A stretch of 53,950 bases of DNA, counting the filler, from Perkinsus olseni (Eukaryota): the NCBI GenBank assembly GCA_013115125.1. It is 3 parts of 3 records of this genome, joined end to end, with 100 filler letters (N's around TTAATTAATTAA, not from the genome) between each part and the next. Parts side by side here need not be neighbours in the genome. Positions count along the whole stretch, not along the records: positions 1 to 17,941 come from JABANN010000627.1; 2 more parts are not named here. The stretch is one strand, 5' to 3'. The notes beneath the pieces were generated by a model. It saw only the letters and a list, made by a program, of their open reading frames with translations, did not search any database and was not told the origin of the DNA. A program made the translations under genes and the position numbers. This document shows positions 6,301 through 32,950 of this stretch, piece by piece (position 1 is the stretch's first letter; the number at the start of each line of letters is the position of its first letter).

Positions 6301-9300
6301 TTGAACCTGACGAATACTATTCAGTATAAGCATGCCTCACACCCTACTGGGATGGCCCAGCGTCCAGCCAGTTCTCGAAAATCTACTTCCACAATTCACT
6401 TTCAAGTAGTTCAGAATTTGGGATTAATTTTAGCACCTCGATCGCGTTAAGGTCGGCACCCGATGGCGAATTAGTATTCCGCCAGCGTCAATTTAGACGT
6501 CCGACCAACAACCACGAGCCAGTGCACGTCCATCACTTACGTCGTAGTCTTGCCTGCACCGTTGATCCCCAACAGTCCGAATACTTGACCAGAATCAGCA
6601 GCGAACGAGACGCCCTTCACTGCATGAACAGCTCTAGAAGGGTCGGCAGTCAGGGAGCCTCGGGGAAGGTAACTGCGCAAAAACTCGCGGTTAGCGCGGG
6701 ATACAAGAGCACCAAAATGCACGAAAGTCGCGAAATGCGTAGACAGTTGTGCTGGGCAAAGCTCCTAGGCGAGAGTAACTGCAGGCGATACTCATAGTCA
6801 ATCTACCGACCAGAACGGTCCCGGCCGCCAAGCAATGCAACCGCAGGCCGGCCGCAATACTTAACAGACTCAACTGTCTTCAGACCGGCAGATTCGATGG
6901 AGGTTCATACGAATCACCTGGTGAAGACAGCCGGTGGCCGACATCGAGAGGTGGGATATTACCGAGCAGAAAAAAAAGAGAAAAATCGGACTAGACTTTG
7001 GAAAAGTCAAAAACTTACCGCACTTACCATTTTCGAACGTTGTCAACGGCCAGAATTTGCTTGCGCTTGTCCAGCCCCGCGACTCTCTCTTTCTCTACCG
7101 TAACATCCGCATCTTCTGGCGCCAACTGGTCCTCAGGAATTGAACTGGAACGAGCAGGAACATCTCAGGTCCATTGAGGAAGAGCGAGATTGCAAGATGT
7201 TCATCAGACCACACCGCGTGAAATAAGAGCCTGATTCCAGCTGGTCTACGCTTACCACTGCCTTTCCAGTTTGACTTTATACGACAGCCAGTGGCCTGCG
7301 GTACCCAAATAATCAAACCAAATACAGAGTGCGAGGAATGCAACGCTGGCGAATGCGAGGTAGACCAGGTCGTCGGCTACTCCCCCATAGCACAGCTCTC
7401 GAGTGCCCAACACCTTTTCAGTGCATGTACCTAGAGCGAACCTGGACTTGCATGCAATGAACGCCTTAATGACGCCTTCCGTATCGCATGCAGAGGACAG
7501 GGTAATCTTCTAAATATTAACGATAATCGTCTTGAATATGACAGCTGGGTTTACGATCGTTTACGCTGGTACAGACGAACTGGAACTTACCGAAAATTTC
7601 CGAGCCCCAAGGATCCACGCCCAAGAAGGAGACGTAGATGGCCATCCGGTAGAAACCGAACCCGAGGGCGAATGACGGAACGAAGCGGAAGATCCACATG
7701 AGAATATTTCCAGCAACCTGAACAGAAGCTTTTCGCGAATAATCGAGATGCTGTGTCGTATAGCGTCCCGGTTCCTCGTATCAGAGACCTTTCCTGATAT
7801 ACGTTTGAGGTTTAGAGTCGGGTTGCGTTAGTTTGCCAGAACTGATGACACATTGTAGCGAATCTCTACGCTTAATTTGCCCATTTTCAGTAAGCCACTA
7901 TTTTCAAAGGAGGCGAACCCTACCACGGTCGACAATTATCGAGGAAGATAATCGTGTAGCGAAGAGTCCACATCTGAGTCGTCTCCCAGTTTGGGGCGGT
8001 TCTCTCTCACCAGGCAGTCTTCGCAGAATTCCTCGGGTATAGTCTGCAGCACCGATACGACTATGACGACGATCGTCCCGACGGCGATGTTCAGCACGAT
8101 GGTAACCGTCTGGGCCGAAAACTGCGTCTTGTACAGGAAGGAGATCAGATAGGCGTACCTGAACGAGCCATCGAGAGGTCCCGGGTTCGAATCCCGCTGG
8201 CAGCTTCTTACGTTGAGGCCGATGGGGCGAACAACAGCAGTAACATGATGGTTGGACCGATCTTATCAGACTCCGTAAATGCCTCCATATCAAAGGCATA
8301 GAGAACTGCTATTGCGACCGCTACGGTGAGGAGGTTGAATACCGTATCGAAGATGAAGTGGGCCAGCCAGTACGCGGTCATGGAGCACCTGAGAGAATCT
8401 CATTTCAGCCCCTGCACGCGAATAAAGTTCATTCTTGCAAGCTGGGATGGATGACGGAATTATCGTCTATATGCTTCCGTATTGACCAGTAGCCATGAGC
8501 TGTTCATGTGCGTTGTTCGTATAGTCTATTGCCATACCACACCACATTAGACAGTGTTCAGAATATCACACGAGCACAGTTGCCCCGCGTATTCCTATGC
8601 TATGAACAGCTGGATACTGCCATTGTGTCGTCGCGGAAGGATCCCAAGACGCGCCCTAGCCTACCCAGAGATTGCCAACTGTGCTTTCACGTCCTTCTCC
8701 TTCTCCATCACAATGTAACTGCATATACCAGCCGGAATGAAGGCGAAGGCCCAAATAACGGCCTGAGACGCGACACAAATGTTGTGACCAAATCGCTAAA
8801 AAATTCGAACTCAGAGGGTATATCCTGCGCAGATTATGAGCATATTCACTGGAGTCTCGTGGGAGAATAATATCGCGGAAAGACGAGAGGTTGGGAGAAA
8901 CCGATCTTCTGAGTACAGACCCCCATAAGATCCAATGATATCTCGTGATATCGTATAACCTTCGAAATATCGGAATGGTCGACGCTGGCCGGCTTGGCAG
9001 GTATCAAATACTCGGAATATGTCGAGATGTCGTTGACGATTTTAGAGCACTATACGCTGTACCAAGAATTTATGGCTCCGTGACTATACCATTAGGCTCT
9101 TCGGGCAATTCTGCTGCATTTTTTCGTACTGCAAATGAGCTGCAGAATAGAGAGTCCACCGCGCCACGAAAATAACGAGCAATAGCGAGGCTTACTATTG
9201 TGGAGAGTATGCCAGATACCACCACTGAGATGTTCTGCTCAAACAGAGTCTGAGGCAACGGGTGATTCACGACGGTAACCTGAGACAAGAAAATACTGCA

Positions 9301-12300
9301 CACTCAATTGCTCAATCTATACAATGACGAATGACGGGGACGACGCTCGCTCGACTTGACGTTGTTAAGGCAATGCTATTCGCTTTAAAATTTATTCAAG
9401 CAACCCGTGGGATTCGAACCCGCGACCTCCTCACCCTGACGTCCGTTCCGTGAGCAGCAAACCATGCGTTGACATACGTGTTCAACGCGATAGCCGAAGA
9501 CGCGGTTGCCGTGAGATTGTGCCAAAGCACCACTCGACTAGCTGGGTCGTCCGCCTCCCTTTGGAGCTCAGTAGCGTTATTTAGGTGCGAGAAAGCGATG
9601 TAGGATGACGCCTAACAAAACGACGAGGCATTGACATGACTAGCTGCCACAGAGCGGGCCGCGGCTCGAACTACCCGAACTACAGTATAACTACACTGTG
9701 CAAATTTTCTCAAAGTACTCTCCTGGTGACAGGACGTCTGTCGGAATCGAGAAGTGTATTCACAACACTTCCACGACGCTCATCCGAGGCCCATCAGAGA
9801 TCGGTAGCGAGAAGAGCGATCACTAGTCCAGCGTTATTGAAACGGGGAGGATGAGATAAGACTCCCCCATCATAGAGATATAAGCAGCAGTTAACAGTCT
9901 AACATGAAACGAGAGGCGCCAATACGCCGGAGGGCATTCTCGAAGGACACCCTCCACTACGGCAGCACGATGAATCAGCCTTATCGTTTCTGCTCCGCCT
10001 CACCTCATAGTCTTCCCGAGACTCTCGTAAGTGGGACTGCATAGCCAGCAGATCACTGCTCTGATTGGGTGGAGTCGCCACTGTCCGAAGCGTGTCGCAG
10101 TGATCGTCGGCATTGGCGCACAGAGGTGACCAGAAAGGACCTGCGAGCAGGCTCCTTGCAACCGGTCATTCCCTAGCGCAGCACACCGTCCGAGTCTCCG
10201 AGCCCCAGAATACTACCAACGTCCGTGTCGCCTCCCGCATGGGTGATATGCCAGGGACGAGGCGAGCCAGCTTTCTGAAGCGGCTCGTTAAGATCGGCGA
10301 TGCTTATCGCCAACGGTGGAGCCACCTGATGTGAGGGGCAAGCTTATAAGTTTTCATGTTTACAGATGCTCTCAAGAGCCGTCCTGCTCCACTTTGAGTG
10401 ACGACAATTCCGTGGAGAGTTCGATACTCGGACTGCCAGCGATTCATGGAAGATGCGTAAAATAGGAGACGAGTATTCATATTGTTTCTATTTAGCTTAC
10501 TCTTTCACTCGCTCCCTGCTTGACTAAAGCCAGGGCGCCCGCCAAGAGGATCAGTGGCAGAAGAAGCTGGCATATGAACATCTTCCTATCACGCAGGCCG
10601 AAGCGTATCCTGAGTACATGGATCATGAATGCACGTGCGAAGTCGGGACGATATGACCTTCTCTGAATCAAGGCCATCGTTTGCTCTCTTGTTGTCGCTG
10701 GTTCGATTATGGGCTCGTCCTTCTCCCCGATATGCACAACCGTCTCCGGTATCCTCGCGTCTTGGTCATCAGCCTGGTTAGCTGAATCATTATCGACCGA
10801 GTCCAGGGGAACTACGGCTCTGAGAGATGGATTCCTGAGGGACTCTAAATTGATAAATAAATTGCCAGAAGCTGAGGTGCATAAATTCCGATGCCGGAAC
10901 TCGAACCCGGGTCGTCTGGGTGAAAGCCAGATATCCTAACCAGCTAGACTACATCGGACGATGCCCGTGAAATTCTAGATCAGAGCCAAACACTCTCCGG
11001 TAATTCGTTACCCTGAACCGGCTGTAGCCCCCTCCGATCGTTCCTCTGCACCTGGATCTGCAACCCGTAGAAAGACTTCTTCCAGGTTAGTCACCGACAC
11101 GCCGTAGGCCACCAACTGAATGGAAAACACACTTCGCTGAAGCTGCACTGAAGCTCAGGAGATTCAGCGACTCCGGTTCGGCAGAGAGGCAAGCTGCACG
11201 AAAATATGCATGCCGCGAAAGAGTCTCGAAGACCTCGCGGCAAACTGCAGGACTGAGCAACATCAATAGTTTGCTAGCCGGAAGCCTCGCTTCAGTCGAT
11301 CCCCAATGAGCGACCCCCCGTTCAACAATTCTGAAATTCAGAATCGATACCGAAATTGATCTTCACACGTAAAATGCGGTTCAAGCATCGATTCGGAGCT
11401 CAAAATTGGGTCGTTGAACGACATCTCAGTCACACCCTAGCTCACCAGCCCCTTCAAGGTGTCGCTCTTGCCAGCAATCTCGGCGTCAAGATCGTCCATG
11501 AGAGCCGGGAAGTCCTTAGCAGCCGCAAATGGCACTTGCACCAGCAGCTCCTGTCCCGCAGATGAGAGAACCTTAACCTGAGGGGGTCCATTGCGATTCG
11601 GGCTCCACTTCCGCACTTGCACGATGGCGAAGCAGACTTTAGCGAGAATTGCGAGAATGGAGTCCTGTGGATCATGAGCACGCAATCAAAGCTACCCTCA
11701 GATTTCGATCTCGTCGAATTCATAAGAATCCGGAGCTGGCAAAGCGCCAGTGGCGCTTTTGGTGGCACCAACCGTACGGCATAAGATCGCACCGCCCCAC
11801 CTGTCCGATGAGGCTCTTATCGGTGATGCGGTCCTTGAGGAACTCGAGCACCGTAGCATCGCCGCGATCTACGTCCTGCTTTTTCACAAAACTCAGGACA
11901 TATCCGCATCCGTAACACTTCTTCAAAAAACTGGATGAGCCCAGGCACTTGAGCTCTCCCCGACCCATTATAGCTATCCTGTCTCCTAGCACATCAGCCT
12001 CGTCCATGTAGTGAGTGGTGAGGCAAATGATCCGCCCTGGACGCCGTGCCTTCAGGAGATCCCAGGTGGTTCGACGGGCGTAAGGATCCATGCCAGAAGT
12101 GGGTTCGTCGAGGATAACCAGTTTCGGGTCCCCGACGAAGGCGATTGCCACCGAAAGTTTCCTCTGCATGCCGCCACTGAGGCTGTCGGATCGGAACTCC
12201 TTCCTCCCGCCGAGACCAACTTCCAGCAGAAGGTGATCGCAAGATTCTCTGAACGTCTTCGAGCTTCGATTGAGACCCCGAATGCCTCCGAAACACTCGA

Positions 12301-14536
12301 GGTGTTCGAAAGCGGTGAGCTCGGGCCACAGGGCGTTATGCTGGAGACAGACACCGGTGATGCGCCTAATCGCTGCCATGTCCTTCGGCACTCTCAGCCC
12401 ATACACGCTCACCTTGCCCGACGAGGGAGCGAGGAAGCCAGTGATGGCGCCCATGGTAGTTGTCTTGCCGGCGCCGTTGTGCCCGAGGAGAGCAAAGATC
12501 TCTCCCTCATACATGGACATGCTCACGCCTTTCACAGCTGCTACAGTCTCTCCAGAAGGGCCTTTGAAGTTCTTGCAGAGCTTGAAGATCTCAACACACT
12601 TGCCAGCCTTCCTCAAAGCCTCCTTAGAAGCATCCACGGCCTCCCTGGGAACGGCGTTGCCCTCGCCACCATCGGAGTCTTCTTTCTCTTCATCGAGAAA
12701 ATCGGCGTCTCGGTCATCCCGAAAGCACTCGAGCCAGTAGGACTTTTGAAAGGGAAAATAATAGGGTCTACGGAACCCGACCTGGAATGGGTTCGTTTGA
12801 TCCACATAGTAGTACAGAATCCACCAGAGAAGGCTCGCCACAAAATTCATTGCCACTGCCTGAGCATAGGAATAGTTACGATAATCGACAGATGTGGTAT
12901 CAGAGGTCAGCCCGCCATAAGTCTCCTCCAGGTAGCCGACGACACCGAGGCCTTCGCGGAAGCCCACGATAGGTATCAAGGACATAAAGTTCTTAGTGGA
13001 CGCTGCGGCGTAGTCGGGCACCGAGATGAAGAGACCGGCTAGGTAGACGAAGAAGCCGATCACGGCTCCTACTCTCTCCCTCGTGAAGATGGCCGACATG
13101 AGGAAAGCGAAGGACATACTCGAGAGACCGAAGGATATGTTGAGCATGAAGATGAGGAACCAGGAGGAATGCTTGTACGTACCACCTCTCATAACCAGCG
13201 AAATCGCGAGGCAAATGATGAGCCACGTTAAGATTTGCGTGATGAGCCAGGATAGGTAGTAAGATACGTCCATAAGGCCCATCATTCTCATTATCTCACG
13301 GAGCCTCATCTCCTTCTCTCTGATCAGGCGGGAGATCTGAACGCTAACAGACGCTGAGAAGGCGAACACCACCAGCCAGGTAAGGTCGCTGATCAGGTCA
13401 ATGCCGTCAGACGACCAGTAGGGTTCCACCGGAAAAGGAACAGACCAAGTTTGCTTGAAAATTGTCTTCTCTTCGCTACTGATGTCGGCGCCAGGGACGT
13501 CCATAGTTCTCCTCGCCACCTCAGTCACAGCCTCGTGCCGTGACGCTATAAAGCGTTGAACGAACAACTGTATCGCTAGAAAGCCATTGCGAATGTAAAA
13601 GTGTCGAGCCGAGTCCTCATCGACGTGTCGTTCGATCCCCCTAGGATCGTCCTCCAGTGAAGTCCGTGTTATCCAACGACTAATACGACCGATCGTAGCG
13701 TTGAGGCGTATCTTGAACTCGGGGTTACCATCCCGAAGGATATCATTCTCAAGAACGACGGCACCGCACAGCCTATCCCAGGCTGCCGGATCGGACCCAC
13801 GCTCCTCGCCAGAAGTAGTTTCAATGGAGGACCCGTAGTCCTCGTCCTCGATGTAGTCCTTCAACGAATCCTCATCGTCGAACACCCTGAAGAGAGTTCT
13901 GGTGTTCCACGATCCGCACTGGGCCCAGTTCGTGAGGAATATCTCTCGAGCATCGCTGTCACCATATCCACCCTGAACGAAGCCTGGTTCGTAACGGTCG
14001 CCAAGATCCCAATGATAGGTGAAGTTGTGACCGGTGGCGTTCACGACTTCCTCCTCGAGTCTTTGGTATTCTCGCTCGAAGTATCCCTTCAACCCATTGG
14101 CAAGCTCTTCCCTTCTGACACCCTTCGCCACAATCGCCAGAGTCTTGCACCAGCACGACTGACCCGAGTCGGCCATCGGCTGCCGCCTGAAAATTCCCCA
14201 GCGCCTAGTGTCGTCCAGGAAGTCGACGTCGAAGGCCTGCGCCCGAGGGTAGCCGTCCTGGCTGACCGGATCGGACTCGACGACCATTCTCCGCTCGAAG
14301 TCCAGACCGAGCAGGCCAGGAAGTTGAAAGATGAGCCAGGAGAGTATAATGGGCAAGAGTATCTCGCAACAGCTGCACTTCCAACTTCGTATCTTGAGAA
14401 TTGCGTTCTTCCTGAGTAAAGCTCCAACCTGACGATGGACCATCCTCTTGGGGGCTTCCGATTGGGCCCCGGCCATTTCTATCAGCTCAGACGGTCTTGC
14501 CTCGCTGGCAGGCCGTAGCGCAGTTCCGTCTTCCAT
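3389..14536 (-). CDS. Full-length ABC transporter subfamily A (TMD-NBD-TMD-NBD), multi-exon
   Basis: Exon 1 (~14536-11778) has ALLRKN, [15 protein letters not shown], [30 protein letters not shown] and TTHYMDEAD. Later exons carry the second NBD ([10 protein letters not shown] ~6540, GYCPQFDAL ~6000, [10 protein letters not shown] ~5780, [10 protein letters not shown] ~5330, TTHSMEEAE). The last exon is [20 protein letters not shown] at 3389. Confidence 0.93.
10886..10958 (-). tRNA. tRNA-Glu(TTC), inside an ABCA intron
   Basis: TCCGATGTAGTCTAGCTGGTTAGGATATCTGGCTTTCACCCAGACGACCCGGGTTCGAGTTCCGGCATCGGAA. It has a perfect 7-bp acceptor stem, an anticodon arm TCTGG/CCAGA with loop CTTTCAC, and a T-loop TTCGAGT (G53-T61 wobble). 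Confidence 0.92.
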
Positions 14537-14625
14537 TAAAAGTTAGACTGAACTGAGCCCGTCCAAACATCAGTGTGAACAACGCAAGGAACCTGTCAGT
14601 TTTTGCACGGGTTGTAAACACGCTG

Positions 14626-14652
14626 CTCCTGACTCAGGAGTCCTGAGTCAGG
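14626..14652. repeat. Overlapping perfect palindromes with a 1-nt centre, upstream of the ABCA start
   Basis: CTCCTGA-C-TCAGGAG (14626-14640) overlaps CCTGACTCAGGA-G-TCCTGAGTCAGG (14628-14652). Confidence 0.85.
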
Positions 14653-15340
14653 GAAGATCGATCGTGCCCCCTGGGAAAGACACTAGGGTTTTAGGAAGAA
14701 TGTTGTGTAATAGAGTAGAGCTAGTAACGGATATCGACGTTGTACTGGTTGTCGGAAGAGAGGACAGGCGAGACATCCCCAAAGGGGCTCCCAGCCGGTC
14801 GAGGGTTGATTTTTGAACAGGCAAGCTCACTTCAGCACCGCATCGAAGAGTACTGACGCAGTACGACTGAAGGATACGCTAACGAATGAGAGGGTATATG
14901 AAGTGTTGATCGGGTGCCGTAAAAGAGGTTACCAGAAAGAGACGACCCACTCGTTCCAAAGACATCCTGGGCGAGCGCTAAAAATCGTGCGCGGTTCTCA
15001 GGCCGCCTGAGTCAGGCGACTTTGCTGTGGTAACACAGTAGCCAGGACATTGAAGAGGTAAATCTTAACTATGTATCAACAGTTCACTGGAATCTTCATA
15101 TCCGCCACTTAAGCGTAGCAGTATCCAACGTCACGGGATTTTGCTTGGCGAGCGACAGCCGACACGACAATGGCCTGTGATATACTGTTGCTTCTCCGTT
15201 GTTGCTCATAGTCAACGCAAGACGGGAAGGTTATCTACCTTTCCTTCTAAGCTTACTCTCTCGAGGGGAATAGTACGGCTATGCACGCATGCACGAGACG
15301 ATCGGCGCATAATGCGTAACAGGTGGACAGATTAAAATCA

Positions 15341-15597
15341 TTTTCCTAAGGAGAATGTTATTTTCCTAAGGAAGAAATCTCGCTCGCCCTTTACATTTTT
15401 CTAAGGAGACTTTGCGCTTTTCTAAGGAGTCTTTGCACTTTTCTAAGGAGTCTTTGCACTTTTCTAAGGAGACTTTGTACTTCTCTAAGGAGACTTTGTA
15501 CTTTTCTAAGGAGACTTTGCACTTTTCTAAGGAGACTTTGTACTTCTCTAAGGAGACTTTGCACTTTTCTAAGGAGCCCTTGCGTTTTCCTGAGGAC
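15341..15597. repeat. 21-bp tandem minisatellite (~9 good copies plus degenerate flanks)
   Basis: Unit TTTTCTAAGGAGACTTTGCAC with point variants. It reads as the heptad EKCKVSL on the minus strand and FSKETLH on the plus strand. Confidence 0.9.
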
Positions 15598-15676
15598 GCT
15601 CCTGGGGCACTACTCCTACCTCTTAAACCCAGTAGCCTTCGGGTTTTAGGTGAAGGTCGCCCGGAGGGCGACCAGA

Positions 15677-15722
15677 TTTCGGTTTCGGGTTTGCGAGGTT
15701 TCGGGTTTCGGGTTTCGGGTTT
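15677..15722. repeat. Short TTTCGGG repeat
   Basis: ggtttcgggtttgcgaggtttcgggtttcgggtttcgggttt. Confidence 0.7.
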
Positions 15723-16376
15723 GCCTAGCAATCGACGGTTTTTTTTGTTGGAACCTGTTCTACGGCTTTGCCTTGTGGAACTGCCAAGCCTTGTGTTTCT
15801 GCCTTGTGGTACTGCCACGGCTCGGCAGACAGCCTTCACTCAAGATCTCGCTTCTCGCTCAGGTCGGGATTTTCCCTTGGAGTGTAATTTTCCCGCCGCT
15901 GATTCTTGCGTGCTCCGATAAGAAGCTACGCTGAGGCTGATATACGTGCCGACTGATCAGGAGATAGCAGCTGAGAGATCTAATTCCGGATGGCTAAACC
16001 CAAGTCTTGTGTTGTCAATAAGCTAGTCTATCCATACTGATGATGTGGGTTCGCTGTTCTGCTGCTATCTTTGTAGAGGTCAACTAACTTACGACAACAC
16101 AACCTTACTCAAACTTGAAATGGGCTCGTTGCATCCTCCGATAAGGAGGTTGCCTGAGTCTACAGTAGTTGAGTAGGCTTATGCCTTCTCTCCTCCCTAT
16201 TGGTTAATAAATCATGGTAAATTACTTGTCACAGGCTAAGCCTGAGACGCTTCTTCGTCTCATTCATTCATGGCTTCACGAAATCCTTCCATCTGGATGG
16301 CGGGAGCCTGTATTAACGGCAGGTGTTCCGCTCCCTTGAGGGTTGTCAGACATTGACTGAACCCAACAGTTCAGAA

Positions 16377-16398
16377 CTTGAGCCAAGATGGCTACGGA
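16377..16398 (-). other. Genome-encoded spliced leader (Perkinsus/DinoSL type)
   Basis: The minus strand reads TCCGTAGCCATCTTGGCTCAAG. This matches the known Perkinsus SL ACCGTAGCCATCTTGGCTCAAG at 21/22 and fits the D at position 1 of DinoSL (DCCGTAGCCATTTTGGCTCAAG). It is followed by TTC, not a splice donor, and an ATG lies 23 nt downstream. Confidence 0.9.
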
Positions 16399-16446
16399 CT
16401 GACTTATACCAATCTCATCAATACTGATCGCACAACAACCAACCAG

Positions 16447-17941
16447 TGTTACCATAGCTAAAAGGGTGCACGCATGCACACTGAGATTGGGAGATAGACA
16501 CAATAAGACATTCCTCTAACACGCCCCCCTGCCGAGCATACATTGCTCGGCACTATGCACCGTCGCTGGAACGACATTAACATGAGACTCCTCGCTGCAG
16601 GTGCCAGATAGAAATCGCACCTTGTAGCGTCTCGCAAATCCATCACGAGAAGGACTGACGACATCGACAATATGACCAACACGAACTCCAACGTCAAGTT
16701 TGTTACGTTGGGCAACTCGGACTAGGACTGTTGTACCCTGAGCAAGTGGAGGAGTATCAACACCTCGCTTTTTGCCCATGGCCTTGGAGCATCGGTCACG
16801 CAGTAATTGCCAATGATGCTGAAGAAAAGTTTGACGGATACATTTAAGAGCACGGGGGCGGTCAATATGGACATTAGCTACAGAATCGGACTCAACCATA
16901 GGTAGAAGAATACCGGTTGAGCGAGTATATCCTAGAGCTAACCGATCTGCAGTAATGACATCATGATCGTCAGAACCCGTTGAATGAATACACATAGGGA
17001 TACTATTCATCAAAAGGGATACATGATCATAAACTCTATTCAAATCCTGATCTGACGATCTAGCAAGCTGTTGGGGAGTATAATTAAGCCTCAAAATACG
17101 CAAACCAACAGCATGCGAACGTTCAACAGGAGTCTCCCACGGCGCTCTAGCGGCGTGGTACCTAAGCTCAACTCCCTCCTCACGAAGGGTGTCAGCAAAT
17201 TCGGAAGATGTAAATGCAGAGCCCCGATCCAGGTAAGCTACCCGAATCTTCCCCCAACGGGACATCAAATTCTTCACACCTTCAACTGCTGCCGCTGCAC
17301 ACTCCTCAGAATGTGAAGAGCGAAACCACGACACGTGGGATGTAGCAATACACCTCGCCGCGAACACTAGCTCGCCAGGAAAGAGGTGTAAGAAATCAAG
17401 GCATACCACCGAGTAGGGGTTACCCGTCCTCAATAGTTCATCAATGTCCCAGTGACTGCCAGCTAAAGGTGCATTCCACTTGAGAGAGGTCATGCGCAAG
17501 CGCAGCTTAGCGCACGGAAGACAACGCCGACAGACGTCTTTGGCACTAGTGGAAGCCCCAATAACATGAATATCCTCTTGCATCGCCGTGACAGTTGGCG
17601 TAGCTCCGCCATGGCCCGCTCGGGCATGAGCGTCCAGGGCCAAGAGGAACCTGAATCTTTTCGCAGTTCTGGGAATGCAAGGGCGACGGAAGGTACTGCC
17701 GGTGATCGTACCTGACCGGAAGTACCAAAGGTCAGTGGACTCGTCGTAGACGAAAGCTCGGCCTTTCTTAGTGAAGTCGTCCAGACGCTGACACAATCTA
17801 ACGACGGTGAGAACGTCGTTGATCTCATAACCTGAGCTCTGTAGCCCGATAGGCAGCCGGGCAGGCATCAAGAGCTGTGGCTGAGCGAGATCATCATCAC
17901 GAGCACGTCGTTGTGCCGTTTGGCGGAAAGGGTAGCGCTTC
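16447..17941 (-). mobile_element. Ty3/Gypsy-like LTR retrotransposon, 3' part (pol/integrase, PPT, start of 3' LTR), truncated by an assembly gap
   Basis: The integrase ORF ends in a polypurine tract GGCAGGGGGG. This is followed by CG and then TGTTAG, the LTR start at 16521. The far end of the LTR is not resolved. Confidence 0.8.
16516..17941 (-). CDS. Retrotransposon integrase (C-terminal part of pol)
   Basis: HHCC zinc finger (AHARAGH...CRRCLPC) and DDE core (LDFLHL, YLDRGSAFTS, PVERSH). The ORF is intronless and the frame stays open into the gap at 17942. Confidence 0.88.
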
Positions 17942-18041
17942 NNNNNNNNNNNNNNNNNNNNNNNNNNNNNNNNNNNNNNNNNNNNTTAATTAATTAANNN
18001 NNNNNNNNNNNNNNNNNNNNNNNNNNNNNNNNNNNNNNNNN

Positions 18042-18530
18042 AACTCCCGTAACACTCACTGTGAGACCATTCTCGCTCGCCCGACCGAATCACTTCCGCT
18101 GTAGTTGACCCTAGTCTCTGTCGAGACTCTCCAGGAAATTAATGCGGCGGAGCGAAGCTGATTTTTTTCCTCGACTTGTGATGATGTTGTTTTCAGGTAC
18201 GGCGTGGAGCAGATCCCGGACGAGTGGATCGCCACGTGTGAAGGAGCCAAAGAAGCCCGTAACGTCGCCGATAGAGTGTTCAATGAGGTCTACCTTGCCA
18301 ACCCCAAGTTGGCCGAATCGATCGCGCGATCGATTACGCTTCCTACCAGACAACTCGCTACTGCCCAATAAATAGTGACATACCCGAATGAGTTCAATTG
18401 TCAAGTATTGTTCAATTTTCCTAGTCTCCGCGTTAACGTCTACGATGTCCGCAAAATCTTCGCTGTGCGCAAAGATATCATCGTGCGTAACTTCAAATGG
18501 AGGATCAGCATATCTTTCTAGATGTACGAA
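18042..18530 (-). CDS. Partial hypothetical multi-exon gene, divergent from the dynein gene and running into the gap
   Basis: Open exon-like segments (ERYADPPFEVTHDDIFAHSEDFADIVDV...IELIR followed by gtatgt; VGKVDLIEHSIGDVTGFFGSF...). No family recognised and the start was not found. Confidence 0.35.
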
Positions 18531-18672
18531 TTTCGTGGCGCGGCGGGTTTCGCTGTGAGCGTGTCCAATTCTTCATCGGTGGTAAATTTTCTGTACAGTC
18601 TCGATTTTAGTGTTGTCAATTTAAAACGGCTTAGCGGAGCGAAGTTTTCTGTAGTATTTTTCTCCCGTTTTG

Positions 18673-21600
18673 ATGAACGAGTACGATTTCATCTACACGA
18701 AGCTTCGCAAGGAATTTGGAAAGTGGGTTGGCGGAGCGAAGCGATTCATGTTTTGCATTTTTTGTTGCTTGGCTCAGGTATTGCGCTTTTGGCGATACTG
18801 ACCCGAAGGTGCTGGCAACGATAGAGGCAAAACCGGAGTCCATGGAACAGTACAGGTGAGATCTTGCAATCTTGTACAATCTTGTACTTCCTCCACGGAG
18901 TATCTGTTGTCATGCGTGCAAGATACGAATTAGGTTGACATTTTCAGATATAAGAATCCTTGCACGCTGACCTTCGATAACACCCCGATGATGTCCGAGC
19001 ACTCAGTCAATACTGATACCGTAAAAACCGGAAATAAGGGGCAGGTGAGCGGTGATCATAATTTCGTGGCGCGTGACGATTTTTCGATAACCGTAAGAAT
19101 CTCCGAAATGGAGAATCTCACGAGGTTGCCCTTCGCGGCTATTCTCACTCTCGTTCCGGTCGCGAATCTGAGGTTGACTCTTGCCGAATACGGAATGTAA
19201 GATATTTCCTCTGTGACCGTAGGGAGAGACTCGAACCCTCGCTCAACGTCCCTGAGGATAGTGTCGTATCTTTCATCCGCCTATGTTGCACTGGCAAGTA
19301 AAAAATCCCGTTTTTTTTCGTCTACTGATTTGCTCAACATAAAAATATCCTACCTAATTTCGCAGTGATCAGAGCCTCTACTGTGAGGGTATCTTCGGAT
19401 CGCGACGCCACACTATACGGACGGAAAAAAGATATGGGAAAATAAGGAAAAATTTGGGGTTTTCCTGGAAGCCTTGTACTCACTTTGGCAAGGTTCATGT
19501 GGAAGGTGGATGGCCGAAGGAAGTCGACTACAGTGAAGCCCAAGATACCGCAAAGTGAGTTGCTCACGCGCGCTCCAGAACAGCTCGACCTCATCCGACC
19601 TCAGGTGGAGGAAAAGACTCGATAAAGATCCCCAGTTCGGGGCTGCGGTGAAGTCTCTGTGTGGCGAAGTGGAGCATTATATTTCTCAGAATTGTGAGTG
19701 GCAATCTCGCTCGCCCGAAATTGTTCATTCGAGAAAGCAGGTGTGAACTCATTCTCTATGCACTTTCTGTTTTTCACTTTCTTAACGAAATTTTCAGTAT
19801 TTTTTCTTTGTTCGAATTTGCGATTTTTCCCGTTCGCTTTCGCATTGGATTTGTGTGAAATGACAATCTGCTCGCTTGGTGTTAGCGTACTGAAGTAGGG
19901 GAGGTCGTCGAGAAAATTTTATCGAAAAAATTTTCCCGAGTTTTACGTTTTTTTGGGAAATTTTCCGTCTCAGGTACGGTGGATCTTTTCGAGGATTATT
20001 TTTCTGGAGAGGAGGTTCAATATCAAATGGAAACGATGTCAGCGAATACGGTAGCGGTGTTTAGAGATCAAAGTGAGCGGAGCGAAGCGGCAAATCGATC
20101 ACCCGATCGATTTTGGGTGGTGCTCAGATGAAGAGGAGTACGGTAGATCAGTGTCGAGAATATCTTGGCATCCCGAGGGAGGTCACAAATTCGTGGCGAG
20201 CTACTCCGTGAGGAAATGCTTTTAAATGTGTCCATACCAACTTTTTTGCAACTCATAGGTCATGCAGTTCCAAAAGCTCGAAGACTCACTGCCGAAGTCT
20301 TCCTTCATCTGGGACGTAAGTTGATCGATTTCGACCTCAGAAAGTATCTTTCCCCGCCAGGTGGAAAACCCCAACCTGCCTGTCGGCGAGCTGCTCCCAC
20401 CAGCGCCCCTCATCTGCACTCAGGTGAGGCAATTTCGTGTCGCGCGAAATTTTCTCACTTCTCTTTTAGAGTATCATCGCAATACTTCCTTTGAATCAAA
20501 ATTCTGGTACAACCGAGTGGGACTGAGCGCGAATAGTATTTATTCAAACAAGTGCGGAAAAAAATTTTCCCGGAATAGTTTTCCGGTGGCGAACGCGCAC
20601 TTGCAAGATAACAGGATATGACGGACGTGATCTTTTTTTATCAGTTTGTATTGTCTCAATTCGATTGCGAACAACTGCCCTCTTTTCTCTCGTGGATTTT
20701 TTTCATTTTCGATCAGAACAAATCTAGATTTTATGTAGCGTTGTTTTCGGGGAGTACTCGGCAGCTTGAAGTTTACTCTCGAAATTTTTTCTCGAAAATT
20801 TCACTAATTTATGGTTTTTTGCCCAACATTTTAACGGCTGTTGCTGTCTTTGCAGTACCAAACCCGGAATCCCGACACGCTGGCCGGCGGAGCTTACAAT
20901 GGCCTGGTTTTCTTCTTCGATGTTCGACAGGTGAGTTGGACAGCAGGTTGTTTGCGTGTGGATTTGGTAACCCTGCGGAGTTCTGAGTTCAATAAGGTGG
21001 AGTTGCGAATTCATTAATTTAGCGCGCGCCCATGCGATCGATTCGGGTTGTATAATTATTTGCTCACGTTGGTGAGAAAGATATTTTATCGATCGTTTCG
21101 TCGCAATTTTCTTCGGGCGGCCGGAGGGCCTTATAGTGCGTTGATAGAGGTTGGAGGAGATAGGAATCTTAGGTTGACCCTGGGAAGATATGAAATTGGA
21201 TGATAGTGCTTGATATAGTCGAGAAAGCGGGGCGAGAAACTTCCTTGAAAATAGAGCAGCTCCAATTGAATCCATTTCAGGGGTCCAAGCCAGTTGGGAA
21301 GTCGTCGTTCGAGCAGTCGCATCACGACCCGGTCTACGACTTCGTTTGGCTGCAGTCGAAAACCAACAGTAAATCCGGCCCAGTCGTTAGCGTTCAATCT
21401 TTTCATGTGGAAGGTGGTTAGTTCGACCCATTTACTTGTCGTTTTTCAGGCGAGTGTGCCACTACTTCGACTGACGGCAGAGTTCTTTGGTGGGACACGC
21501 GTAATTTATCCGAACCGACCGATGAGGTTGTCTTAACCGACGGGAACCGGGAGAACCCGAAGCAGCTCGGTAGGTGGGAGGAGACCGCACTTGCCCTTCT

Positions 21601-23222
21601 GCTGGTGTTGCTCTCAAAGACTAGACGGTTGGTGGATTGCGTGGTTGGTGGATCAGGGTCATCGTGGAGTATTGCGAAAAAAACGACGGACAAATCCCGA
21701 TCAAATTACTGAAAAATCACAGAAGAATCACGCGGAAAATCGCAGAGAAATGGCTGGAAAAGTACAGAAAGTATAATTCGGGAAATTATGGGTGAATCTC
21801 GAAAAATTTCGTCCGAGTTCATCGCGGTGCACAACTTTCCCATTTGAGTGTGTTGCTGTGCCACAGCAGCTGCTGATCAGGTGGATGCTGTCTCGAGTGG
21901 CAGCAAGAGGCCGGCCCGACTAAGTATTTGGTCGGCACTGAGCAGGGCGCTTGCATGGCGTTGAATAAGAAACCGAAGAAGCCAGTGGAGATTGGTGAGC
22001 TTAATTTCGTGGCGTGGTGAAGAAGTGTCTGGCATCTTAGCGGAGCGAAGCACGAATTTTTAGGGACTTGGTTCGGGATTGAAGAGAAGGGCGGCCACTC
22101 GAAGCACGCCGGGCCAGTGTATGCCCTCCATCGTAACCCTCAACACGTCAAGTACTTTATGACAGTTGGCGACTGGAGTGTTAGGATATGGTTAGAGGTT
22201 AGCAGGGACAGCGGAGCGAAGCGATTTTTATTCTCTGTTTTTGTGAAGGAACTAAAGGCGCCCCTGATGCAAACGAAGCCCTCACCGTCATTTCTCACTA
22301 CTGGTGGTTGGAGCCCTACGAGAGCTGGTTTGTTCATGGCGGGACGCTACGATGGGTAGGATTTGCGAAAGGAGCGGTACGAATTATTTGCACGCATGTA
22401 CATTAAGATACGTTGACTTCTGGGATTACTTCTACAGGATGAACGAAGTGTGCTATTCTCACAGAGTGAGTTTTTCTTAGCGGAGCGAAGCAGTTTTTTT
22501 TTGCATTTTTGTTGGTTTTAGGTGAGTAAGATGCCGATATCCACGACATCGTTCCAATCTCATGGGCGACTCCTCGCTGTCGGTGATGCTGACGGAACGG
22601 TGTCGCTGCTCCAGCTGTGTGATGAGCTCGTCAATCCTGGCCCTAATGAGAAGAATGTAAGTATCCACGGTCCTTGCGAGCAAGATACAGAATAGGTCGG
22701 CTTCAGGCTGTTGGAATGATATTTGAGCGCGAGATGAGAAGAGAAAAGAATCTCGAGGCCATCAAGAAGGCACAGGCCGGCAAAGGTAAACGGCATCATT
22801 CCTTCTGGGATCGAGGGAAGCCTTTTGACGAACTATCTGATAACCACATTACATTGGTTTGGTCATAACGAGCACGATACCGGCGTTGGACCATGAACTT
22901 AGACAAGTACCGCTTTACTTTAAAGCCGGTCATCCTCTCCCGTAGCCTCTCGCTAGCCCATTGTGTGTCTTATTTCAGCTGCGAAAACGGAAGGAACCTC
23001 AGGGGAGGGAAAAGGTGAGGGAAGCCTTCAACAGGCAGCTCGCTCACGACTAGTTATTTTAGATGCCGCGGACGATTTCCCCAGCATCGATCAACAAGCG
23101 TGAGAGGCCCAGTTTGCTCCACTACGTTGGGAAGTGGCCGCAGGTACGTCGAGAGAGAGAAGGCCTGGCTGGAGGAGGTCGGCCTCCCGACTGACTCCTT
23201 GACGATTAAACCCAGTGTGTGA
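18673..23222 (+). CDS. DNAI2: Axonemal dynein intermediate chain 2 (IC69/ODA6-like WD40 protein), multi-exon
   Basis: Exons read MNEYDFIYTKLRKEFGK, SEHSVNT, HVEGGWPKEVD, SWHPEG, SHHDPVYDFVWLQSKT, STDGRVLWWDTR, GPTKYLVGTEQG, HAGPVYALHRNP, MTVGDWSVRIW and WSPTRAGLF. These are characteristic DNAI2 motifs. Confidence 0.9.
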
Positions 23223-23567
23223 GGGTATATCCGTGCTGTTGCATGAGATGTGTTGATGGTGGTTGAATCAGTGTTCTTGTGGTGTTGCAAGTGAACGGGG
23301 GATGAACAACCTGATTCGTTCCGCCCAGGCTTGGTAACACAACAGACGCGGAAATGAGCGCAGATAGGGCCTTTACGGCCGGCGTCTTCCCGCGAGGAAG
23401 TTGGGTGAGATCGCGCCTATCATGGTGTGACCCTGAAGGCTGGTGGCATAGGTAGCTCGGCTACCAGGTCCCTTAGGACCATGCACTACCAGCCTTCCCC
23501 GCAGGAGGAAAAAGAAAAAAAATTGGGGGGGGGAGAGAGTTAAAGAGACGTATACCGTCAACTGATA

Positions 23568-23584
23568 CTTGAGCCAACATGGCT
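23568..23584 (-). other. Degenerate spliced-leader relic
   Basis: The minus strand reads AGCCATGTTGGCTCAAG, a 16/17 match to the 3' part of the SL. Confidence 0.6.
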
Positions 23585-23821
23585 TTAGACGTGAAGATAC
23601 TGCACTTTGATGCTAACCAGCTTCTCATTAGCTACGTTGGACTACTCGCACTTCCTCATAGCGTCAGCGAAACACAGGGAGACAGAAAAAGTTGTGCCAC
23701 ATTTGTGGTTCGCACTCCCACGACGATTCGGGGCTGCACTTGGACGCATTTTGCGTCTGTTAATGAGTTAGCTCCAGTTTGAGTGGTGATGATACCATGG
23801 CGCAGAACCGTTGATGAGGTT

Positions 23822-23879
23822 CAGCGGAAGGTCAGGACTCCTGACCTTCCGCTGGAGGGGAGGACTCCTGACTCAGGAG
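23822..23879. repeat. Two adjacent perfect palindromes with a 1-nt centre
   Basis: CAGCGGAAGGTCAGGA-C-TCCTGACCTTCCGCTG (23822-23854) and CTCCTGA-C-TCAGGAG (23865-23879). Confidence 0.9.
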
Positions 23880-24429
23880 GGGAGGACCCGATGAGTGGAT
23901 GGGGGACCGAAGCCGGAACCCAGGGCGGCAGTCTAGAAGCAGGGTTCATTTGGGTCTGGAACTGGAGTTGGCTTGGTGAGCCGTAAAGCGCCCAGCTGTT
24001 TGCCTGCCGAGGACCGACTCAAGCGAGTAGAGTGGCGGCCAGCTGATGAAGTCTGACCGCTCAGTTCTTGACCCAGTTCGCCGGATAAGACAGATTAAGA
24101 TGATTTGTTGTTTGGCATGACTGGGTGTATCATGTTTTTGTGATAAACTTCACGATAATTTCAAAAAAACTATCTGTATGGGGTACTCCATGCCGTGTCT
24201 TATGGCAACATATAGACCGCACTGACGCACAGATAACAAGGAAAAATCAGTCAGACGACGGCAGCCGTGCGGGAGAGATCAGCGTGCGTATGGACACCCT
24301 CAGAGCGAAGGCTCGCTGCAGGAACACTTCTGTTACGAAGTCCAGACAACCGCCTTAGACTTGGTAAAACGCGACACCTCTGCAGATTCGTTACAACATC
24401 AACAGCACAGGGTTATCATGTCTTTATCA

Positions 24430-25432
24430 TTCGTCAATTCGCGAGCAAATAACAGTGGAAGAGATTGATAAGTAGATAGCGTAAGACACTACTCGATGCG
24501 ACCAAGACCTCACCTGAACCGCGTCTCCACACGTTTCCCACCAGCACGCTTGGCCTCCTCAGCGATGTTGTAATACTTGGTGCATAAGTCATGATAAGTG
24601 GGGAATATCTTCTGGAGAGTCGCGAGCCCATTAGCGCATATCTTCCCAGTGATCTCTTTAGCCTTCGGAAGGTTGGAATAGAGCCGATCGATAGCGTCCT
24701 TAGCATCCCATTGTATGGCTGCGACAGGATCTTGCGTGCGATTATATTTCCACCAAGGCGTAAAGACGTTAATGAAGTCGTATGAAAGGGGAATACTGCG
24801 ATGATACACATTATACCACCAAATTCTACAGAAAGAGTATCTGACAATGCAAACAAGTCGAACACGTAGTGTACTGAACGGACCCTTCCCGAGGAACAAA
24901 CCATCTGATGATCACTTCATAACGATCTGTGCAGAGAACCGATCGAGCGCGTCGGTGATGGTTTAATTGAGCTGGTCCGGCACCCGACTATATACTCACA
25001 CACAGGCTGTATACATATCTTCTCACCCTATCTCGAAGCTAGGCCTGTTCTCAGTTTCAGGGCAGCGCACGTTCCCGGTTGATATGAGATTCTCCTCGAC
25101 ATTGATCTTCAACAGGGAGGCCTGCCTTCCCTTCAGCGTTTTATTGCCGAATGTGCATATGACTGCTTTGTCGCCCAAATCGGGGTACAAATACGAGTGT
25201 CCAGGCAATGAGGGGTATCCCTGATAGCGAAAAATGGGTGATCACCCGTGGCCTCTACTGTGAGAGCAATGACAGTCGAAGGACTTCACAATTGATAGTC
25301 CAGTGCAGCCGTTACCGCCCTCCTTACATCGTGAGATGCGGCCGCGCCGATGGCATCCCCAGTGGGCAGGTTTGACGATATCAATGCAATAGCGATAGCC
25401 GAAACTCCGATGATGAACTGTTTATTCGACAT
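24430..25432 (-). CDS. Unknown secreted-type family protein, copy B (3' end approximate)
   Basis: Exon 1 MSNKQFIIGVSAIAIALISSNLPTGDAIGAAASHD ends at gtaag. Exon 2 is GYPSLPGH...CPETENRPSFEIG. A later exon reads QDPVAAIQW...ICANGL...TYHDLC. Confidence 0.65.
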
Positions 25433-26276
25433 TGAGTGATCAACTTTAACGCTGCAGGGCACGGAAGGTGTGCACTATTGCCGTCCTTGCCGTTGATAAG
25501 GATGACTGTGCCCTTCACGCTGTTAAGGACATTTCCCCACGGTCGTGATCACAATCAAGACGTTAGAGGGGCCCTCACAGTTCTTGAATGTCTGGAAAAG
25601 GTAATACCGCACGAAAGTTCGGCGTCGCTCGCCTAGTCAGCCCGGAATTGAGCATGTGTAGGGTACAGTTCTGTTGACGATTCTTTCCCTCTTCGGTTGA
25701 GGGTGAGTCACGGGCCGGTCTCAACGAGCCCCCCCCCCAGTCCACAGACACTCGGTGATGCTCACAAAGAGTACCGCGTCCCCAACGGGTGAAGTTGCGT
25801 ACCAGTTCTTATCAACCATTGGGGGCCTCAAGTCAATGAGTCTGATATTCTGTTACTCAATTGCACTAGCGAAGTCATCAACTAGCGTCAAGCTAAGCTC
25901 AGGCTTCATCGTTGTACACCCGCACAACCTTGCCCTTGCTCAGCAAGCTCTATTGCGCGCCAACATGAATCTCTCCAATATCCCGGCGTTACCAGGGATT
26001 ACACTTTGACTCCTACCGATGTGCTCAGTTAGGGGCTCTCTGTGGCGTTGATACGTAGCGCAGTGGGTATGATAGCAGGGACGTACTAATAATCCATTTT
26101 AACTCGGACAACGCGAAGATGAGTAGTCACACGCAAACAACAACATCGTCATCATGGTTTTGGTACTGATCCACCGGCAACAAAGTGAAGCGCTGATAGA
26201 TAAAGACGATCGACTTAGCAACAACTCCTCCAAACTTGGCCAACGGATCAACTCAGAATCTTATTCACTTTGATGA

Positions 26277-27015
26277 TCAAAGCTCGATTCCACCAGCACG
26301 AAGGACTTCTTTGCCGATAGCGTAGTTCTTGGCGCACAGATCTTTATAGGTGAGAAACTTCTTTTTCAGAGCTGTGATGCCGGTCATGCAGATTTTCTCA
26401 GTCTCTTCATTGCTCGGCGAAGCACTAGATTTAAGGATAGCTGATAGCACCCCCGGCACTCCAACGCACGCTCGCGAGAGGGTCCTTGACCGGGCCATCA
26501 CCCTTGAACTCATACGACGGTCCATAGCCACCGCCCGGGGCGTCTAGATTAAACCACATAATACTGCCCCATAGGTACCTGCGTAAACATGACGGAATGA
26601 GATGAAGGGGCCGTAGCGTGTATCCCCCATCACCCCATATCGAAGCCGGTTCTGCCACCAGCCGCGGGGCAATGCACTTTCCCTGTCGACATGTCGGTCT
26701 CGCCAAGGAGGATCTCGAGTCGTGTAACCTGTCTTCCATCATCGAGCTTTTCAATACCAAACTCGCATTTGACAGTTCTGCCGCCGTAAATGGGTTTATA
26801 ATGGCGGTGGCTCGACAAGGAGGGGTATCCCTGAGAGGGAAGTTGCAGCCGAATAGAGTGGCATCTCAGAATCCGTGCTGTTGCAATGGAGTTGTTACCG
26901 CCCTTACTCCGCTACGTGCCGCTGCGCCGATAGCATCCCCGAGGGGTAGTAAGCTCGCCACAATAGCGGCAACTACAGTCGAAACTCCCAGGATTAACTG
27001 CTGTTTGCACGACGT
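26277..27015 (-). pseudogene. Secreted-type family copy C, pseudogene
   Basis: Aligns to copy D, but the start codon is ACG (27013-27015). There is also a +1 frameshift near 26435 (GAISYP* versus GAFRRLKS in copy D). Confidence 0.75.
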
Positions 27016-28208
27016 TCGAAGAATTACGTGTAAGGCTGCATGAAGGCGTCCTTGAGGGAGTATCTACAGTACTACTACTACTACTGCAGGAGGCGCTGAG
27101 GCCAGTGCCTTGTGCTAGTGGCGGCTCGAGTGTGAGGGGGGAAACTGGTAGCGCACGGAAGGAGTGAGGTATCGCTCGCCTCGTCGAGTGAGGCTGAGTT
27201 TGTTGGCGTCACGCGGTCTCAGGCCTGATCGTAGCTTCACGCCTAACTCGTGAACACCGGACCGACCGACTGCCATTGGTAAAGGGCGGAAAAGGCACGT
27301 CCAAGATGCAGAACAGAAACACTTCGGGTGGCCGAGAAGGGCTTAGCGAAGGAACAAAAAGACGAGGTCACATTTTACATCAGAATCCACGCGCTGCTTG
27401 CTGCAGATAACATCTACCTGAGGGCCTCTACCAGAAGCAGTAATGCAATATCTAACACCGATCGAAGATCTCGGTTCAGAGGATCAACTTCAGACTCGGC
27501 AGGGCTCACGCCCGGGCGGGAGCCCAATCTGAGAAGTGTACTTGTGCAAGTGCGCAACTAGGGAACCTTCTGCTGATGCTAGTAGGAGATTATTACTTCG
27601 ACTAGAGTCTAGATTGGACACAATGATTCTGAGATTATCTCGGGGTCTCCCTCTCTACATATTCCTGTCGCGTTCCCAATGGATAACACATTTGCAACTC
27701 CGTTAGCGAAGAACAGCCCAAATCTCAACCACAACCGAAGCCGCGGAACCATGGTGGCGGACGAACACGCCGTCCTCCAAACGGCGGACCTGGAGAAGGG
27801 AATTACCCTTGAGGATTGTAGATTGTGCGGAGACTACAACTGTTAAGGAGGTTTCGACGGGACACGCTTCAAGCCTCAACACCAGCAGGATCGTGTGTGC
27901 GAGTTCATAGTCCAACGCTTACGGTTCCGGCTCAGACTCTTGTCGATGGGTTCAGTTGGGGGCTCTCTGTAGCGTTGATATGCTTTGCAGTGCTTATGAT
28001 GGCGTGGACGTACTGATAATCCATTCTAACTTGTAAAACACGAAAGATGAGTAGTCACACACAAAGAACAACATCTTTATCATGGTACAGATCTATCTGG
28101 GTAGATGTAACCACAGGTGATGGAACAAAAGGGTACCAGCTGATAGATGGATATGGTCGATTAAAGAGCTTCTCTGGATTTGGTGACCTCGGAGGCCAGG
28201 CCTCCTGA

Positions 28209-32887: not shown

Positions 32888-32889
<2 letters not shown>

Positions 32890-32950
<61 letters not shown>
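32890..32950. repeat. (CTA)n microsatellite, ~20 units
   Basis: Uninterrupted ctactacta... run. Confidence 0.95.

Follow-up and report, generated by a model that had tools for sequence, protein, structure and literature searches.

A DNA-encoded spliced leader inside the long terminal repeat of a multi-copy Perkinsus retroelement

It is a general question how elements with long terminal repeats (LTRs), whose reverse transcription requires identical RNA ends, persist in hosts where the 5' ends of RNAs are replaced. Perkinsus and the dinoflagellates are such hosts, as their messenger RNAs are tagged by a trans-spliced leader (spliced leader, SL) whose function is debated. Slamovits and Keeling are said to have described, in 2008, relic SLs of retroposed genes in dinoflagellates. 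Here we analysed a stretch of 53,950 bases from the Perkinsus olseni assembly GCA_013115125.1 (hereafter the window), in which a 22-nucleotide (nt) SL lies within the LTR of an integrase-bearing retroelement. Comparison with public sequencing runs supports the SL as an integral, DNA-inherited part of this 213-base-pair (bp) LTR in P. olseni or a very close relative. The best explanation of the observations as a whole, to which we give a probability of about 0.6, is an inherited SL in the LTR of a transcribed multi-copy element, captured from a trans-spliced RNA and acting near the start of the repeated region (R) of the element RNA. Within this explanation, the origin by capture from a trans-spliced element RNA is likely, and a function as R start or as leader mimicry is less certain.

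The window joins three contigs end to end (1-17941, 18042-35951 and 36052-53950), so adjacency across the linkers is not genomic. The element-bearing contig stops at 17941, within pol, and its readable part comprises only the end of the integrase and the 3' LTR. A reading of the element as a 5'-truncated copy was rejected, since the runs of N are contig-joining linkers. The features of the element, read on the minus strand, are as follows.

16519-17940, minus strand: C-terminal part of pol with the integrase open reading frame (ORF), open from the contig end to a TAG stop (16518-16516)
16533-16522, minus strand: polypurine tract GGCAGGGGGGCG, abutting the LTR on its 5' side and sharing sequence with the final integrase codons
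16521-16309, minus strand: 3' LTR, TGTTAG...TTAATACA, 213 bp with TGT...ACA ends, its borders taken from contigs of other runs
16521-16399, minus strand: upstream LTR part, candidate unique 3' region (U3), containing the palindrome-like GTGTGCATGCGTGCAC (16481-16466), TATAAG and AG
16398-16377, minus strand: DNA-encoded SL TCCGTAGCCATCTTGGCTCAAG, 22 nt, LTR positions 124-145
16376-16354, minus strand: spacer of 23 nt, beginning with TTC and holding the inverted repeat CTGAAC (16374-16369)/GTTCAG (16362-16357)
16353-16276, minus strand: ATG and short ORF, MSDNPQGSGTPAVNT then GSRHPDGRIS*, 25 codons, stop TGA at 16278-16276
17942-18041: contig-joining linker N44-TTAATTAATTAA-N44, which ends the element-bearing contig; a second one lies at 35952-36051

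The first-pass annotation, made from the window alone, had placed a complete 22-nt SL at 16398-16377. These coordinates hold; full identity with the published P. marinus leader PmaSL1, given as ACCGTAGCCATCTTGGCTCAAG in the main text of Zhang et al. 2011 (PMC3101222) and quoted too by Alacid et al. 2022 (PMC9399869), does not, as 21 of 22 positions are identical and nt 1 is T here and A there. The 21-nt core occurs once in the window, even with up to three mismatches allowed, and in none of 100 dinucleotide-preserving shuffles. It begins 123 nt past the T of TGTTAG, with an AG (16400-16399, minus strand) abutting its first nucleotide and a TATAAG (16408-16403, minus strand) upstream. Directly 3' of the SL stands TTCTGAAC, with no GT donor and no intron-like sequence after it. 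According to the main text of Zhang et al. 2011 (PMC3101222) and to Alacid et al. 2022 (PMC9399869), an SL RNA gene of the Perkinsozoa type consists of the exon, a GT donor with the motif GGTA, a roughly 60-nt intron and a poly-T end, and in the latter article GTA follows the exon in perkinsozoan SL RNA genes. Because TTC is found after the SL whereas those genes have GTA, this locus is not an SL RNA gene, as had been argued from the same letters.

Between the SL and the ATG, the spacer carries a perfect 6-bp inverted repeat, CTGAAC/GTTCAG. The repeat was described correctly, but no unusual folding goes with it: from the SL to the LTR end (90 nt) the fold, at -24.7 kcal/mol, is no more stable than that of shuffled sequences (z -1.17), 26 of 200 of which reach or pass this value. 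The ATG at 16353, followed by MSDNPQGSGTP, is present as reported and opens a frame of 25 codons in the window copy, the first 15 of which end exactly at the LTR end (16309); the remaining 10 are flank. In two RNA contig ends that run past the LTR end, read by eye, the ATG frame is open for 10 codons in one and stops after 9 in the other.

The borders of the repeat were obtained from public runs, 20 of 24 of which hold the stretch or part of it. Four runs were compared over 15650-17940 at 80% likeness: X1 and X3, DNA runs from different studies (52 and 76 records aligned, respectively); X7, RNA by guess (2527 records); and X18, a metatranscriptome that is RNA-Seq by its record (12 records). 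Contigs leave the window sequence on the high-coordinate side at 16521 (two records in X3, one in X18), 16519 (one in X18) and 16497 (two in X1), and on the low-coordinate side at 16309/16311 (2+3 records in X1, 2+2 in X3) and 16309/16310 (1+1 in X18). Thus borders at 16519-16521 and 16309-16311 recur in two DNA runs of different studies and in one RNA library, and they coincide with the TGT...ACA ends, with the purine tract immediately upstream. A polypurine tract abutting the start of the 3' LTR is what is expected of an LTR retrotransposon, and the earlier proposal that the tract overlaps the last integrase codons and that the LTR starts with TGTTAG at 16521 agrees with the repeat border; the TAG within TGTTAG (16521-16516) is the stop of the integrase frame. 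From the SL it is 123 nt to the 5' border and 68 nt to the 3' border. Other contigs show different flanks on both sides of the 213-bp unit, whose depth is several times that of the internal region. Among the 30-letter ends beyond the LTR, none resembles the complement of a tRNA 3' end as a primer-binding site would, and the two tRNA genes of the window, tRNA-Glu(TTC) at 10886-10958 (minus strand) and tRNA-Pro(CGG) at 30317-30388 (plus strand), gave no lead to one.

Depth along the region separates flank, internal region and LTR, as listed here for the two DNA runs.

15650-16265, flank: depth 88.1 in X1 and 178.5 in X3, taken as 1x; two of eight bins are higher, at 131.7-547.8
16574-17940, integrase: depth 426.6 in X1 and 883.9 in X3, about 4.8-5x flank
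16266-16496, three bins: depth 2453-5274 in X1 and 3877-14699 in X3, about 22-82x flank

The flank below 16309 has single-copy depth. An X1 unitig identical to the window over 16337-16449 (113 nt), which spans the SL, the spacer and the ATG, has a depth of 1324, 15x flank; the corresponding X3 unitig, 16337-16429 (93 nt), is also identical to the window, spans the same three features and has a depth of 2310, 13x flank. At SL position 20 (16379), total depth reaches 2282 in X1 and 5411 in X3, or 26x and 30x flank, and 85% of it has the letter of the window, the rest (about 15%, in 2-3 contigs) being an A>G variant. In both DNA runs, a 1909-nt contig with the integrase depth of about 5x flank spans the junction of integrase and LTR, covering 16492-17940. 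Since this collapsed contig crosses the junction, the integrase copies join the 213-bp unit at the same place. By depth, the SL-bearing LTR is present in roughly 13-30 copy equivalents and the integrase in about 5, where contig depths are not copy numbers and ratios to the flank are rough. These results support the proposal that an element family carries the SL inside its LTR, rather than a flanking retrogene or insertion target carrying it: the borders enclose the SL, the SL unitigs stand at 13-15x flank, and the integrase junction is shared. The further expectation that the SL would sit at the same position in other copies was borne out in part, for many copies at 13-15x exact depth, and fell short in some diverged copies that seemingly have no SL or differ there. 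Two other diverged copies are alignable across the SL, and their likeness breaks off at its 3' end, at 16376 and 16378. Related LTRs therefore appear, from these alignments, to share the upstream part, mostly with the SL, and to diverge downstream.

The upstream LTR part also contains a 13-nt string (minus strand GTGCATGCGTGCA, part of the palindrome-like motif, which a structure scan lists as a stem-loop pattern) at 16467-16479. The string recurs 1.2 kb downstream, in the single-copy flank at 15282-15294, perhaps as a regulatory motif, perhaps by chance.

The element is transcribed in X18, where a 149-nt contig covers 16311-16459 with zero differences and a 5641-nt contig spans 16492-17940 and continues for 4192 nt. 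Depth is 0 in all eight flank bins of this run, where contaminating genomic DNA should have left a signal as well. In X7, element depth is 2.3e5-9.4e5, against 0-249 in the flank. A 307-nt contig of X18 opens with SL nt 2-22 and, 12 letters further on, turns into unlike sequence; it has the look of an ordinary SL-capped mRNA and shows the leader in use in that sample. A scan of the region for bacterial-type promoters and terminators is uninformative for a eukaryote.

No second LTR and no further copy of the element was found in the window, by repeat search over 8000-30000, BLASTN of 15901-16600, integrase tblastn or self-BLAST, and the upstream pol parts of relatives (P0002-P0004) have no match in the window past 17940. 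The end of the contig at 17941 accounts for both absences. The lineage of the element is read from the integrase ORF and its relatives. Pfam matches of the ORF are Integrase_H2C2 (2.3e-5) and rve (3e-4), both below the curated cut-offs. Two partial P. olseni proteins match it at 85-98% identity (2 of 8000 scored candidates passed), and a P. chesapeaki protein of 1059 amino acids (aa) with reverse transcriptase (RT), RNase H (RH) and integrase (IN) matches at 53% identity over 89% of the query. Among 1.84 billion representative proteins, matches number 94 at E <=1e-3, 37 at 1e-10 and 9 at 1e-30, and many of the matched proteins are polyproteins of 1000-2000 aa at about 30% identity. For polyproteins starting at the LTR ATG, only partial P. 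olseni models stand among the matches, and none reaches the N-terminus. No relatives of pol were found in viral contigs by alignment-based search.

An alignment of 12 relatives, the P. chesapeaki protein included, contains RT (LFVDD), RNase H (DAS) and integrase (HHCC and DDE) in that order. The arrangement RT-RNase H-DDE integrase is thus seen through the relatives, the window itself holding the integrase only. Compared with solved structures, the profile of these 12 relatives matched prototype foamy virus (PFV) integrase (1.2e-17), a caulimovirus-type RT (4.4e-17), Ty3 Gag-Pol (4.8e-11), Moloney murine leukaemia virus (MMLV) RT (3.5e-7) and Ty3 RT (4.3e-6). Pfam matches on the 12 aligned relatives are weak: Integrase_H2C2 in 9, rve in 3, RVT_1 in 2 and Peptidase_A17 in 1. 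In the ESM Atlas, the P. chesapeaki relative fell with an RVT_1 cluster (0.91) and a Peptidase_A17 cluster (0.90), which we take as leads only. Judging from these similarities, the element belongs to a very divergent RT-RH-IN retroelement lineage, which may be Ty3-like or Bel/Pao-like and may form an undescribed clade of LTR elements. As an observation on the relatives themselves (P0004, P0009-P0013, P0022), RVT_1 misses most of them, and their RT and integrase structures are recovered by the family profile only. Over the 1449 nt of the integrase region, the sole difference between runs and window is at position 16565, T in all four runs at nearly all depth and G in the window; this near-identity in a collapsed contig (1 difference in 1449 nt) suggests recent activity.

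How might a host leader have entered an LTR? Under the explanation we prefer, an element RNA would have been trans-spliced at the AG in its 5' LTR and so have received the SL at its 5' end. Minus-strand strong-stop cDNA would then have copied the leader, and a rare resolved strand transfer could have fixed it at the junction of the upstream LTR part with the sequence that follows the acceptor, after which it would be re-copied at every transposition. The AG directly before the SL fits capture at an acceptor and is the only sequence hint for it. In such an LTR, R may begin with the SL or near it, so that LTR-initiated RNAs would be born with a host-like leader 23 nt before an ATG; alternatively, with trans-splicing at the final AG of the encoded SL, an RNA would keep the matching ends that first-strand transfer needs.

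Several observations weigh against this account, in addition to the roughness of the depth ratios. Because the contig ends inside the element, a pair of LTRs on one copy, a primer-binding site and a target-site duplication are beyond reach. Depth over the SL segment is 20-30x flank, compared with 42-77x at LTR positions 16346 and 16477. Around the SL, three joints of single-copy depth leave out 121, 44 and 79 nt, one of them passing over 16369-16412 (16368>16413), and the alignment of one diverged copy, in a 27.5-kb contig, is confined to 16398-16491 and ends at SL nt 1. Part of the related LTRs may thus be without the SL or have a different sequence there, and the SL may not be universal in the family. 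By chance, one SL in 16 would have an AG in front of it, and 4 of 50 distinct environmental SL contexts (described below) do. The first nucleotide of the SL is T, against the A encoded by P. marinus SL RNA genes in the main text of Zhang et al. 2011 (PMC3101222), which argues against renewal from trans-spliced RNA in each cycle, unless the species has SL RNAs that start with T. As to function, contigs cannot reveal RNA starts or ends. TATAAG, at a mere 6-11 nt upstream of the SL, would as a TATA box with the usual spacing put the transcription start close to the SL 3' end and leave most of the SL in U3.

A bolder form of the preferred explanation is possible, if rather doubtful. Here the SL would be the first 22 nt of R in an element adapted to a trans-splicing host, whose RNAs would be born with the leader, including its exon-borne Sm-like site, and, with no need of trans-splicing, be handled and translated like host mRNAs; or the genomic RNA, after trans-splicing at the final AG of the encoded SL, would regain an identical 5' end and with it the terminal redundancy for first-strand transfer. 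LTRs of this family and of sister families would then make up the more than 100 unexplained intron-less SL-like loci of Perkinsus.

Alternatively, the SL could be a passenger fossil that entered the LTR once, by any route, and has been copied neutrally with no role in transcription, translation or reverse transcription. We regard this as unlikely, yet it is the strongest of the competing accounts. At a single site, position 20, the SL varies (about 15% of depth), as the LTR does nearby at 16346, 16407, 16421 and 16477, so that no extra conservation is visible; the joint 16368>16413 and the alignment ending at 16398 point to diverged copies seemingly without the segment; and the hairpin or leader fold is no better than shuffles. 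A neutral passenger sits less easily with the SL-bearing form having the highest exact-match depth (13-15x flank) in copies with a near-identical integrase region, with diverged LTR relatives that keep the SL and whose likeness ends at its 3' end (16376, 16378), and with an ATG at a leader-like 23 nt whose frame is open to the LTR end.

Retroelements physically tied to SL RNA genes are known from other hosts. SLACS, CZAR and CRE of trypanosomatids and NeSL-1 of nematodes are site-specific non-LTR retrotransposons in SL RNA genes, where they split the exon, and SLACS, CZAR and CRE are transcribed from the host SL promoter. They resemble the Perkinsus element in this tie to the SL, and their transcripts may start with SL letters; the Perkinsus element differs in having LTRs and an integrase, and in bringing its own complete SL wherever it is integrated. 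Membership of this SL-gene-specific non-LTR class was rejected, as the element is an integrase-bearing LTR element with an uninterrupted SL, no SL RNA intron nearby and one SL in 54 kb. In parallel with SLACS, CZAR and CRE, an ancestor of the present element could have inserted in or next to an SL RNA gene and taken promoter and exon at the DNA level. The diverged copies invite this idea, since a promoter-plus-exon module would leave an upstream LTR part plus SL with likeness that breaks off where the SL ends, as seen in them; TATAAG is close to the SL, and upstream regions of some SL RNA genes are alike in the main text of Zhang et al. 2011 (PMC3101222). It is nevertheless improbable: the SL is followed by neither a GT donor nor intron-like sequence, its position 1 is T and not the A of the P. 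marinus SL RNA genes reported in that text, the integrase is retroviral in type and accompanied by an LTR, unlike the endonuclease type of SL-specific non-LTR elements, and the SL is complete, with no insertion splitting it.

That the SL lies outside the element, as the relic leader of a retroposed host gene or as an insertion target beside a retroelement fragment, is very improbable: relic SLs before dinoflagellate retrogenes are well known, some P. marinus genes carry SL exons (Zhang et al. 2011, PMC3101222, main text), the window lacks a second LTR and the ORF after the SL has only 25 codons, but the SL is 68-123 nt inside both repeat borders, its depth is 13-30x flank while the flank below 16309 is single-copy, and the integrase copies (about 5 equivalents) share their junction to the repeat in one collapsed contig. 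A relic-SL retrogene was likewise rejected as a class for this locus, with the SL internal to the LTR, 10 of the 25 ORF codons belonging to the flank, and the next ORF having only weak coiled-coil-type Pfam matches.

Genomic leader copies have been met before in related organisms. Dinoflagellate relic SLs, treated in the main texts of two reviews (PMC6050394, PMC12014239), and the SL exons of P. marinus genes (PMC3101222, main text) resemble the present case as leader copies without a donor, for which reverse transcription of an SL-bearing RNA is the likeliest route. They differ in position: those relics mark the 5' edge of a retrocopy of a host gene, whereas this SL is inside an LTR, is re-copied with each transposition, exists in tens of copies and has no parent host gene. 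Also comparable are the P. marinus sequences of Zhang et al. 2011 (PMC3101222), whose main text describes more than 100 genomic sequences with a recognisable SL and no intron, most starting with T and variable downstream, which gave no clear product in 3' rapid amplification of cDNA ends (RACE) or RNA blots and were left unexplained. [quoted passage not shown] The LTR spacer and ATG resemble the "SL-like" primer sequences given in the main text of the same article, by eye only and as a lead. Joseph et al. 2010 (PMC2868825, main text) reported numerous genome-encoded 22-nt SLs as well as expressed sequence tags (ESTs) resembling retroviruses or retrotransposons. Neither main text, supplements aside, links SL-like loci to retrotransposons, and in Alacid et al. 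2022 (PMC9399869) the terms transpos-, retro-, LTR and relic are all absent.

Two LTR-based systems show other ways in which retroelements meet the SL machinery. Cer1, a Ty3/Gypsy-type element of C. elegans, is also an LTR element in an SL host whose RNA is trans-spliced, but SL1 goes onto its spliced 2.4-kb mRNA, the 8-kb genomic RNA escapes trans-splicing and the element itself encodes no SL (Dennis et al. 2012, PMC3315495, main text). The solo LTRs of the Echinococcus ta-TRIM elements likewise initiate transcripts that interact with the host SL system; there, however, a donor derived from the LTR and the SL compete for a host acceptor, and the LTR has no SL (Koziol et al. 2015, PMC4558846, main text). 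A search of full-text literature, with subscription journals and supplements outside its scope, found no SL encoded in an LTR among the papers listed.

The exact 21-nt SL core was also sought in environmental data and was found in 57 metagenome contigs (L001-L057) with 50 distinct contexts, in 0 viral contigs and in 0 genome contigs of public collections. T is the commonest first SL letter, in 35 of the 50 contexts. In three contigs (L002, L007, L044) GT follows the SL, and these may be SL RNA genes of uncultured relatives. Several others (L040, L048, L055, L056) contain truncated tandem relic leaders. None of the 57 contigs is like the LTR beyond the SL, and none holds a pol relative (0 matches by tblastn; 0 by profile search of 1339 ORFs).

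If the preferred explanation is right, the LTR is a natural experiment on leader function, as the same 22 nt would here be made by transcription and not by splicing. The T/A difference at nt 1 may separate the encoded from the trans-spliced leader in RNA reads. The finding offers a possible explanation for many of the intron-less P. marinus SL-like loci reported in 2010-2011, and it implies that counts of retrogenes from relic SLs can be inflated by LTR copies, and SL-primed cDNA libraries by LTR transcripts. In addition, this LTR is short and seemingly highly expressed, and may serve as a promoter-leader in Perkinsus transfection. More broadly, the LTR may illustrate the way in which RNA tagging is coped with or imitated by a genomic parasite, here one of the shellfish parasite Perkinsus.

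The window has further features besides the element. Eight head-to-tail copies of a 21-bp unit, with 70-92% identity to the reference copy, occupy 15368-15617 and lie within a minus-strand frame of 157 aa (15369-15839) that encodes a repeated, heptad-like SLEK.K peptide and has weak coiled-coil-type Pfam matches only. At 11723-14542 (minus strand), 1.8 kb downstream of the LTR, a single long ORF of 938-940 aa with ABC2_membrane_3 and ABC_tran (7.5e-29) encodes an ABCA-like half transporter. A tandem duplication of about 1.96 kb, in several blocks with 74-91% identity, covers 26008-27340 and 27935-29304. Finally, four adjacent plus-strand ORFs of 271-309 aa with similar starts (48882-53205), in which 49212-49619 and 50304-50711 are 72.5% identical, form a tandem gene family.

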